Source: Escherichia coli (GTDB lineage: Bacteria; Pseudomonadota; Gammaproteobacteria; Enterobacterales; Enterobacteriaceae). Taken from it: a stretch of DNA of 64,000 nucleotides. The position numbers and the translations under genes were made by a program. Location of the stretch: NCBI RefSeq assembly GCF_003334335.1, contig NZ_QOWQ01000020.1. One strand, written 5' to 3'. The notes beneath the pieces are model-generated. The model had not been told where the DNA came from. It saw only the letters and a list, made by a program, of their open reading frames with translations, and made no database searches. Below, in pieces: positions 51,082 through 51,151 of the stretch (positions are counted from its first letter, which is position 1; each line of letters starts with the position of its first letter).

Positions 51082-51118
51082 AAGGCCTTCTCCAGGAGAA
51101 GGCCTTGAGTGTTTTCTC
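51082..51118 (+). terminator. rho-independent terminator of ppiC
   Basis: AAGGCCTTCTCC-AGG-AGAAGGCCTT followed by GAGTGTTTTCT. Confidence 0.75.
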
Positions 51119-51151
51119 CCTCTCCCTGTGGGAGAGGGTCGGGGTGAGGGC
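51114..51151. repeat. GC-rich palindromic intergenic repeat (REP/box-like) between ppiC and ilvC
   Basis: tctccctctccctgtgggagagggtcggggtgagggc contains CCCTCTCCC/GGGAGAGGG inverted repeat. Confidence 0.5.

Follow-up and report, generated by a model that had tools for sequence, protein, structure and literature searches.

The region described here lies in a 64,000-nt stretch of one strand of the Escherichia coli contig NZ_QOWQ01000020.1 (assembly GCF_003334335.1), hereafter called the window. It contains the end of ppiC and, in convergent orientation, the end of ilvC, separated by a spacer of 86 nt (Table 1). An inverted-repeat search identified a perfect hairpin close to the ppiC stop codon, followed by a second, GC-rich palindromic element. 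The core of this element starts 10 nt past the hairpin, ends 12 nt short of the ilvC stop codon, and comprises three blocks connected by the loops TGT and TCG. The first two blocks form a perfect 9+9 inverted repeat with a 3-nt loop, and the sequence is as the first-pass annotation had described it, a palindrome placed behind the ppiC terminator hairpin. RNA folding predicted both hairpins in the plus-strand transcript (-46.9 kcal/mol, z = -3.8) and in the minus-strand transcript (-46.4 kcal/mol, z = -5.0). The 21-nt palindrome pattern occurred only once in the 64-kb window when up to three mismatches were allowed, and was absent from 100 dinucleotide-preserving shuffles; no matches are expected by chance. 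Across the spacer the window does not differ from E. coli K-12 MG1655, for which ilvC is annotated at 3,957,970-3,959,445 and ppiC at 3,959,532-3,959,813. Window positions equal 4,010,609 minus the K-12 coordinate, a conversion that reproduced all landmarks.

Table 1. Features of the ppiC-ilvC spacer and its surroundings, in window positions (K-12 MG1655 coordinates in brackets)
Feature	Position	Strand	Remarks
Rho-dependent region, ilvC direction	50783 (3959826)	K-12 (+)	score 2.8, p = 4e-5
ppiC	50796-51077	+	ORF; upstream side of the spacer
ilvC-sense 3′ end	51078 (3959531(+))	-	M63, 5,802 reads; 3 nt past the shared hairpin
Shared hairpin	51081-51107	both	perfect 13+13; in both alleles; outside the repeat unit
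Segment replaced in the empty allele	51109-51158		50 nt exchanged for 9 nt, ACTCTGAAT; alignment of filled and empty alleles
Primary ppiC 3′ end	51110 (3959499(-))	ppiC-sense	M63, 23,172 reads; 3 nt past the shared hairpin
Full type-B BoxC unit	51110-51163	+	about 54 nt: T-rich 5′ flank, three-block core, 3′ flank; copy alignment
5′ flank, TGTTTTCT	51110-51117	+	in type-B copies elsewhere; absent from the empty allele
Core, CCCTCTCCC-TGT-GGGAGAGGG-TCG-GGGTGAGGG-C	51118-51151	+	34 nt; TMECO no. 20, type B
C-block, CCCTCTCCC	51118-51126	+	pyrimidine hairpin arm; pairs with 51130-51138 in the folds of both strands
G-block 1, GGGAGAGGG	51130-51138	+	purine hairpin arm; inverted repeat and RNA folds
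Four G-runs	51130-51150	+	G-quadruplex consensus G3N3G3N2G4N3G3; regular expression
ppiC-sense 3′ end	51142 (3959467(-))	ppiC-sense	LB, OD 0.4, 28,044 reads; 4 nt past the BoxC hairpin
G-block 2, GGGTGAGGG	51142-51150	+	candidate third strand of a triplex; antiparallel register with G-block 1
3′ flank, CATCAGCGCGCAC	51151-51163	+	abuts the ilvC stop codon; common to the hrpB-mrcB, argF and plasmid copies
ilvC stop codon	51164-51166	-	far side of the convergent spacer
Rho-dependent region, ppiC-sense within antisense ilvC	51432 (3959177(-))	K-12 (-)	score 3.98, p = 2.4e-12

The DNA upstream of ppiC showed further features. Two promoter-like sites (CTGACA ... GATCAT, with 18-nt spacers) lie just upstream of the gene at 50724-50797, 44 nt apart, each opening with the direct repeat CTGACAATTA. 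The interval between rep and ppiC contains two overlapping plus-strand ORFs of 86 and 91 aa in different frames (50107-50597) that look like one frameshifted gene, possibly the yifN pseudogene of K-12.

The 34-mer at 51118-51151 was found to be identical to the string given as entry 20 (CCCTCTCCCTGTGGGAGAGGGTCGGGGTGAGGGC, type B, 3,959,491-3,959,458) in Table 1 of Holder et al. 2015 (NAR 43:10126; PMC4666352), a catalogue of 23 TMECO motifs in MG1655. This exact match identifies the ppiC-ilvC palindrome as an already known BoxC/PIT/TMECO repeat and as a copy already catalogued individually, MG1655 no. 20. The first-pass annotation had placed it in a class of enterobacterial intergenic repeat that it did not name; that class is BoxC. 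According to the history outlined in PMC4666352, the motif was described in the 1990s as a palindromic repeat, 'BoxC', and rediscovered in 2000 as the 'potential intrastrand triplex (PIT) element'. The structure of the ppiC-ilvC copy agrees with the definition of the family, namely blocks of the form CCCTC[T/G]CCC, GGG[A/T]GAGGG and GGG[T/A]GAGGG, of 9-10 nt each, on one strand and with short loops; the three blocks were found at 51118-51126, 51130-51138 and 51142-51150. Copies are assigned to a type by the second loop, TTA in type A and CCG-like in type B. The TCG loop, the listing by Holder et al. as type B, and flanks resembling those of type-B and not of type-A copies all place the ppiC-ilvC copy in type B.

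The element is dispersed. The 56-mer 51108-51163 was searched by blastn against 5,426 complete E. coli genomes; 4,504 of them gave a total of 30,311 places, with a median of seven and a maximum of 15 places per genome. The many places per genome show that the element belongs to a dispersed repeat family and is not, as would have told against the earlier reading, unique in its genome. Fourteen of the 23 K-12 copies were recovered with a regular expression at their listed coordinates (the ppiC-ilvC copy and 13 others at nine other loci). All are intergenic, the ppiC-ilvC copy lying between stop codons and the 13 others checked lying between annotated CDSs. BoxC was originally noticed beside envM/fabI, and one of the copies among the retrieved K-12 loci does adjoin fabI. 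An Rfam covariance-model scan at a permissive E-value gave only noise (best scores 13-20 bits against gathering scores of 39-90, E > 1). Identity with REP/BIME elements was rejected: no REP core (of the GCCGGATG.../GCCTGATG... type) is present in 51078-51163, although REP cores occur elsewhere in the window, and the element is thus distinct from REP as had been supposed. The window as a whole contains 12 REP-core matches, against about four expected by chance, and clusters of them (GCCGGATGCGGCG-like, on both strands) at 10345-10447, 26286-26389 and 47874-47886 correspond to REP/BIME elements.

Alignment of the copies showed that the conserved unit extends beyond the core. In type-B copies of K-12 and of a plasmid, (g)TTTTCT stands directly 5′ of the C-block and CATCAGCGCGCAC stands 3′ of the last G-block, while the flanks of type-A units differ. 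The copy on plasmid NZ_AP023208 (pMTY18781-3) matches window positions 51112-51163 at 98% identity over 52 nt. Since these flanks are common to type-B copies, the unit at ppiC-ilvC spans approximately 51110-51163, and TGTTTTCT belongs to the repeat. The limits 51114-51151 proposed earlier are therefore accurate for the core but too narrow for the conserved unit. The segment TGTTTTCT doubles as the T/U-run behind the ppiC-sense side of the shared hairpin, and both the first-pass annotation and a consensus terminator scan had taken it for the T-tract of the ppiC terminator. The overlap between repeat and terminator that the annotation had pointed out is thus closer than it meant, the T-run behind the hairpin being part of the repeat unit. 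The BoxC hairpin itself was considered as an intrinsic terminator and rejected: it is followed by TCGGGGTGAG on the plus strand and by AGAAAACACT on the minus strand, with no U-run, and the terminator scan of the K-12-type spacer reported only the 51081-51107 hairpin. Fifty of the 30,311 blastn places are on plasmids; Holder et al. 2015 (PMC4666352) reported no plasmid copies. On the 70-kb E. coli plasmid NZ_AP023208.1 (pMTY18781-3; locus L006, 2932-3039) a type-A and a type-B unit form a pair. It lies within a cluster of flagellar genes and is flanked by a frameshifted lysine-N-methylase gene on one side and a glycosyltransferase gene on the other.

A 501-nt query spanning the locus separated E. 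coli genomes into two length classes. Alignment showed K-12-like strains and CX04 to carry the 50 nt at 51109-51158 (filled allele), while in O157, 83972, ETEC4068 and AVS0153 the shared hairpin is followed directly by ACTCTGAAT (empty allele). This 9-nt filler was identical in every empty allele looked at. Junction-specific megablast searches found the filled allele in 2,944 of 5,426 genomes (54%; bovine STEC, K-12-like and other strains) and the empty allele in 2,352 (43%; including O157, Nissle 1917, 83972 and ATCC 11775), so that two clean alleles with intact flanks cover 97.6% of the genomes. About 130 of the 5,426 complete genomes matched neither junction query at a coverage of at least 80% and may have other alleles, degenerate copies or other insertions. 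Since some 43% of E. coli genomes have nine unrelated nucleotides in its place, the BoxC element is dispensable. The empty allele lacks the ppiC-sense T-run, and the terminator scan scored its hairpin on the ilvC-sense strand only, while that of the filled allele was scored on both strands. Though dispensable, BoxC does alter the sequence behind the ppiC-sense hairpin. A further difference concerns the stop codons. In the O157-type empty allele (L002, 276-330), TAATAGC at the ppiC stop can pair with GCTATTA at the ilvC stop, which would lengthen the shared hairpin into a helix bracketing the whole spacer. K-12 and ETEC4068 have CGCAC where the O157-type allele has CGCTA.

Transcript ends at the locus were taken from the Term-seq analysis of MG1655 by Adams et al. 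2021 (eLife 10:e62438, supplementary file 1). Ends lie 3 nt past the shared hairpin on each strand, indicating that this hairpin forms 3′ ends in both directions; that of ppiC falls on the first T of the repeat's T-run. The position of the ilvC end means that the entire BoxC unit is part of the ilvC 3′-UTR, in the form of its C-rich strand. Some ppiC transcripts run on to the BoxC hairpin, and a ppiC-sense end was mapped just past it in LB. The Term-seq check that the first-pass annotation had suggested could be made on published data, and it placed 3′ ends at both the BoxC and the shared hairpins. The TERMITe supplements, a second Term-seq resource, had no entries for ppiC or ilvC. Upstream of ppiC, a hairpin with a T-run (GAAGCCCGGATTTTCCGGGCTTTTGCC; 50650-50700, about 96 nt before the ppiC start) coincides with a strong Term-seq 3′ end (MG1655 3959909, window 50700; 39,000-63,000 reads), classed by Adams et al. 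(eLife 10:e62438) as 'orphan / upstream of ppiC'.

Regions of Rho-dependent termination, defined with and without bicyclomycin (Adams et al. 2021, eLife 10:e62438, supplementary file 2), lie beyond the spacer on both sides (Table 1), and Rho-dependent read-through past the spacer occurs in both directions in K-12. Dar & Sorek 2018 described how, in E. coli, PNPase and RNase II shorten Rho-terminated transcripts as far as stable stem-loops without U-tracts. The end at 51142 would fit this trimming-back pattern, although it could instead be a pause or termination site and not a product of trimming. At other BoxC-type hairpins, too, Term-seq 3′ ends follow the stem, at a distance of 2-4 nt (lldD 3781065, 847200 and 4231270) or, in one case, of 8 nt (632098). 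However, in the dataset of Adams et al. 2021 a curated 3′ end at the hairpin is present for just two of the 23 canonical K-12 copies, indicating that 3′-end formation at BoxC is context-dependent. The earlier suggestion that the element may influence mRNA 3′-end stability fits the published data. The ppiC-sense end mapped in LB, 4 nt beyond the BoxC hairpin, speaks for it, as a correlation; against it, the element is missing from 43% of genomes, and the functional tests of PIT elements, as summarised in PMC4666352, revealed neither promoter nor terminator activity, nor any influence on RNA polymerase.

The spacer was compared among loci encoding PpiC relatives in 80 species. In Enterobacter asburiae and strain RIT691, a type-B BoxC, oriented as in K-12, stands behind a similar hairpin (AAGGCCTTCTC...). 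Identity to E. coli, counted on the alignment, was about 89% over hairpin and element, close to that of the flanking coding sequence. Such cross-genus sharing suggests an old origin of the filled state. A recent horizontal transfer that would explain the sharing was found to be unsupported: ppiC and ilvC are 88-90% identical to those of E. asburiae and RIT691, the same as to those of genera lacking the element, and recent transfer is thus not indicated, though with both genes conserved this is a weak test. In E. asburiae (L031, 1524-1570) the BoxC unit adjoins and overlaps the end of the ilvC coding sequence, the ilvC stop codon TGA (TCA on the plus strand) lying inside the BoxC 3′ flank CATCA.

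Other genera have other repeats at this site. The spacer of E. albertii and of a second Escherichia species is unrelated and holds a different hairpin and REP/BIME-like units; REP-like units were also found in the ppiC-ilvC spacer of several Citrobacter and Pluralibacter. An ERIC/IRU-like element (...CCCCAGGAGCATAGATAACTATGTGACTGGGG...) occupies the same spacer in Escherichia sp. ESNIH1, Phytobacter, a Proteobacteria MAG and Enterobacter sp. Bisph1 (L032, L033, L035 and L043, at about 1530-1680 of each locus). Across genera, the ppiC-ilvC spacer is a hotspot at which repeats of different families gather. In two Pseudocitrobacter genomes (L022 and L023, 1483-1590), an inverted BoxC pair takes up the entire spacer, beginning 1-3 nt past the ppiC stop codon. 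A separate terminator hairpin is missing, so that ppiC and ilvC would have no 3′ structures other than the BoxC hairpins in these genomes.

These observations are most probably explained by a dispensable passenger copy of BoxC (MG1655 no. 20, type B), the hairpin and T-rich flank of which shape local RNA 3′ ends incidentally, in a manner similar to that described for REP elements. The stretch bounded by the shared terminator hairpin and the ilvC stop codon, which holds the unit of about 54 nt, would be a place where insertions do little harm. The BoxC strand, as single-stranded DNA or as RNA, forms a very stable 9-bp hairpin, and in single-stranded DNA the third block can, in vitro, also fold back into an intramolecular purine-motif triplex. 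What the unit does locally is probably incidental and takes place at the RNA level. The T-rich 5′ flank would supply a U-run immediately after the ppiC-sense side of the shared hairpin, with a possible effect on termination efficiency. Those ppiC transcripts reading through would be terminated by Rho inside antisense ilvC and trimmed by 3′-5′ exonucleases to the BoxC hairpin, yielding the second stable 3′ end. The ilvC 3′-UTR bears the entire BoxC unit. The element probably has no selected function.

A stronger form of the RNA-level reading is that BoxC acts as a context-dependent 3′-UTR element in the manner of REPs, contributing a U-tract and a second, exonuclease-blocking hairpin at ppiC-ilvC, giving allele-specific transcript ends and being under selection in several genera. 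This can be offered only tentatively, as the less favoured possibility. The hairpin-plus-BoxC arrangement of E. asburiae and RIT691, found with ordinary flank divergence (88-90%), could reflect selection to keep the element and so tell against neutrality.

The BoxC unit might also be kept as a selected terminator and insulator module in which its U-run makes the shared hairpin an efficient ppiC terminator and a back-up hairpin insulates ppiC from ilvC. The provenance of the T-run agrees with this, since it comes from BoxC and is lacking on the ppiC-sense side of the empty allele, as do the 3′ ends mapped at both hairpins and the order and orientation of hairpin and BoxC, about 89% identical across the two, that E. 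coli, E. asburiae and RIT691 have in common. Such a module is nevertheless unlikely. It would be missing from 43% of E. coli genomes (O157, Nissle, 83972 and ATCC 11775 among them), E. albertii, Citrobacter and others have unrelated spacers, PIT reporters had no terminator activity in the tests as summarised in PMC4666352, and read-through beyond both hairpins persists in K-12.

A function at the DNA level, as proposed in PMC4666352, appears improbable to a similar degree. An intrastrand triplex formed during replication or transcription would stall polymerases and cause local instability and variation. With G-block 2 antiparallel to G-block 1, the ppiC-ilvC copy shows the register this calls for, nine of nine positions giving allowed purine-motif triplets (G.G, A.A, T.A). 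Oligonucleotides of TMECO types A and B form triplexes in vitro by CD and NMR, with a Tm of 70-82 C, and primer extension showed a polymerase stop; further, TMECO loci vary more than control intergenic sites (PMC4666352), and the ppiC-ilvC locus is itself polymorphic. However, duplex TMECO gave no triplex signal, and DMS footprinting in vivo revealed no protection (PMC4666352). Two clean alleles in 97.6% of the 5,426 genomes look like one old event and not like recurrent instability, and any repeat gained or lost at a site is expected to be associated with variability.

Less likely still is that a MITE-like mobile element transposed into the site, single units being halves of inverted A+B pairs. 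BoxC is indeed multi-copy, strictly intergenic and strain-variable, its A and B units often occur as inverted pairs, the plasmid places include a 98%-identical pair, and the filled/empty polymorphism is discrete. Alignment of the filled and empty junctions, however, revealed no target-site duplication, 9 nt being replaced and not duplicated, so that membership in such a class is not borne out. In addition, apart from its internal blocks the unit lacks terminal inverted repeats, no transposase is known for it, and the junction sequence common to three genera fits descent better than repeated insertion.

It is very improbable that the four G-runs form an RNA G-quadruplex in read-through ppiC transcripts, affecting decay or Rho loading. 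They match the consensus, but the C-block and the first two G-runs form the 9-bp GC hairpin that dominates the predicted folds, the 3′ end at 51142 cuts off the last two G-runs, and for the DNA oligonucleotide NMR ruled out a quadruplex, which had been considered (PMC4666352). Finally, that the element is a chance palindrome or a mere part of the ppiC terminator, with no family identity, has nothing in its favour beyond closeness to the terminator hairpin and is ruled out with near certainty by the shuffles, the thousands of copies across genomes and the exact catalogue match.

Naming the element changes little in itself, an unnamed repeat becoming copy no. 20 of the BoxC/PIT/TMECO family described since the 1990s. 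The family has been considered to play no part in transcription, yet stable RNA 3′ ends occur at several BoxC hairpins in public Term-seq data, and at ppiC-ilvC the repeat also provides the U-run of the neighbouring terminator. The division of E. coli genomes into about 54% filled and 43% empty amounts to a natural experiment on whether repeats of this kind tune the 3′ ends of convergent genes, with coding and promoter sequences unchanged. If BoxC does act as a 3′-UTR element, strains would differ in the transcript ends, read-through and stability of ppiC and ilvC.

Several known systems resemble the element in part. ERIC/IRU units are also enterobacterial intergenic repeats and fill the same spacer in other genera, but ERIC is about 127 bp long, has another consensus and shows no similarity to BoxC. 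H-DNA and mirror repeats share a homopurine-homopyrimidine tract, triplex potential and a link in the literature to polymerase stalling and instability; H-DNA, however, is a duplex-plus-strand structure, while the BoxC triplex would be intrastrand, formed by three blocks of one strand, and none was detected in vivo (PMC4666352). REP/BIME elements are, like BoxC, short GC-rich palindromic intergenic repeats, frequent in 3′-UTRs and convergent spacers. Their hairpins block 3′-5′ exonucleases and can work with Rho, and REP units fill this same spacer in E. albertii and Citrobacter. Their sequence is unrelated, and the third block with its triplex potential belongs to BoxC only. BoxC is not known to be linked to a RAYT-type transposase. 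The protective stem-loops of Dar & Sorek 2018 are similar in being stable, lacking a U-tract, having the 3′ end a few nt downstream and a Rho region further downstream; the BoxC stem-loop differs in being a dispersed repeat that stands behind a first, intrinsic-type hairpin, and its exonuclease role would be a presumptive one. With the BoxC/PIT/TMECO repeats of PMC4666352 the element shares the 34-nt core, three blocks, 3-nt loops, conserved flanks, intergenic location and multiple copies, with no difference at the sequence level. Relative to that catalogue, the unit boundary with its T-run and putative U-tract role, the allele frequencies in 5,426 genomes, the overlap of mapped 3′ ends with the hairpin, and the plasmid places are additions, minor but testable.
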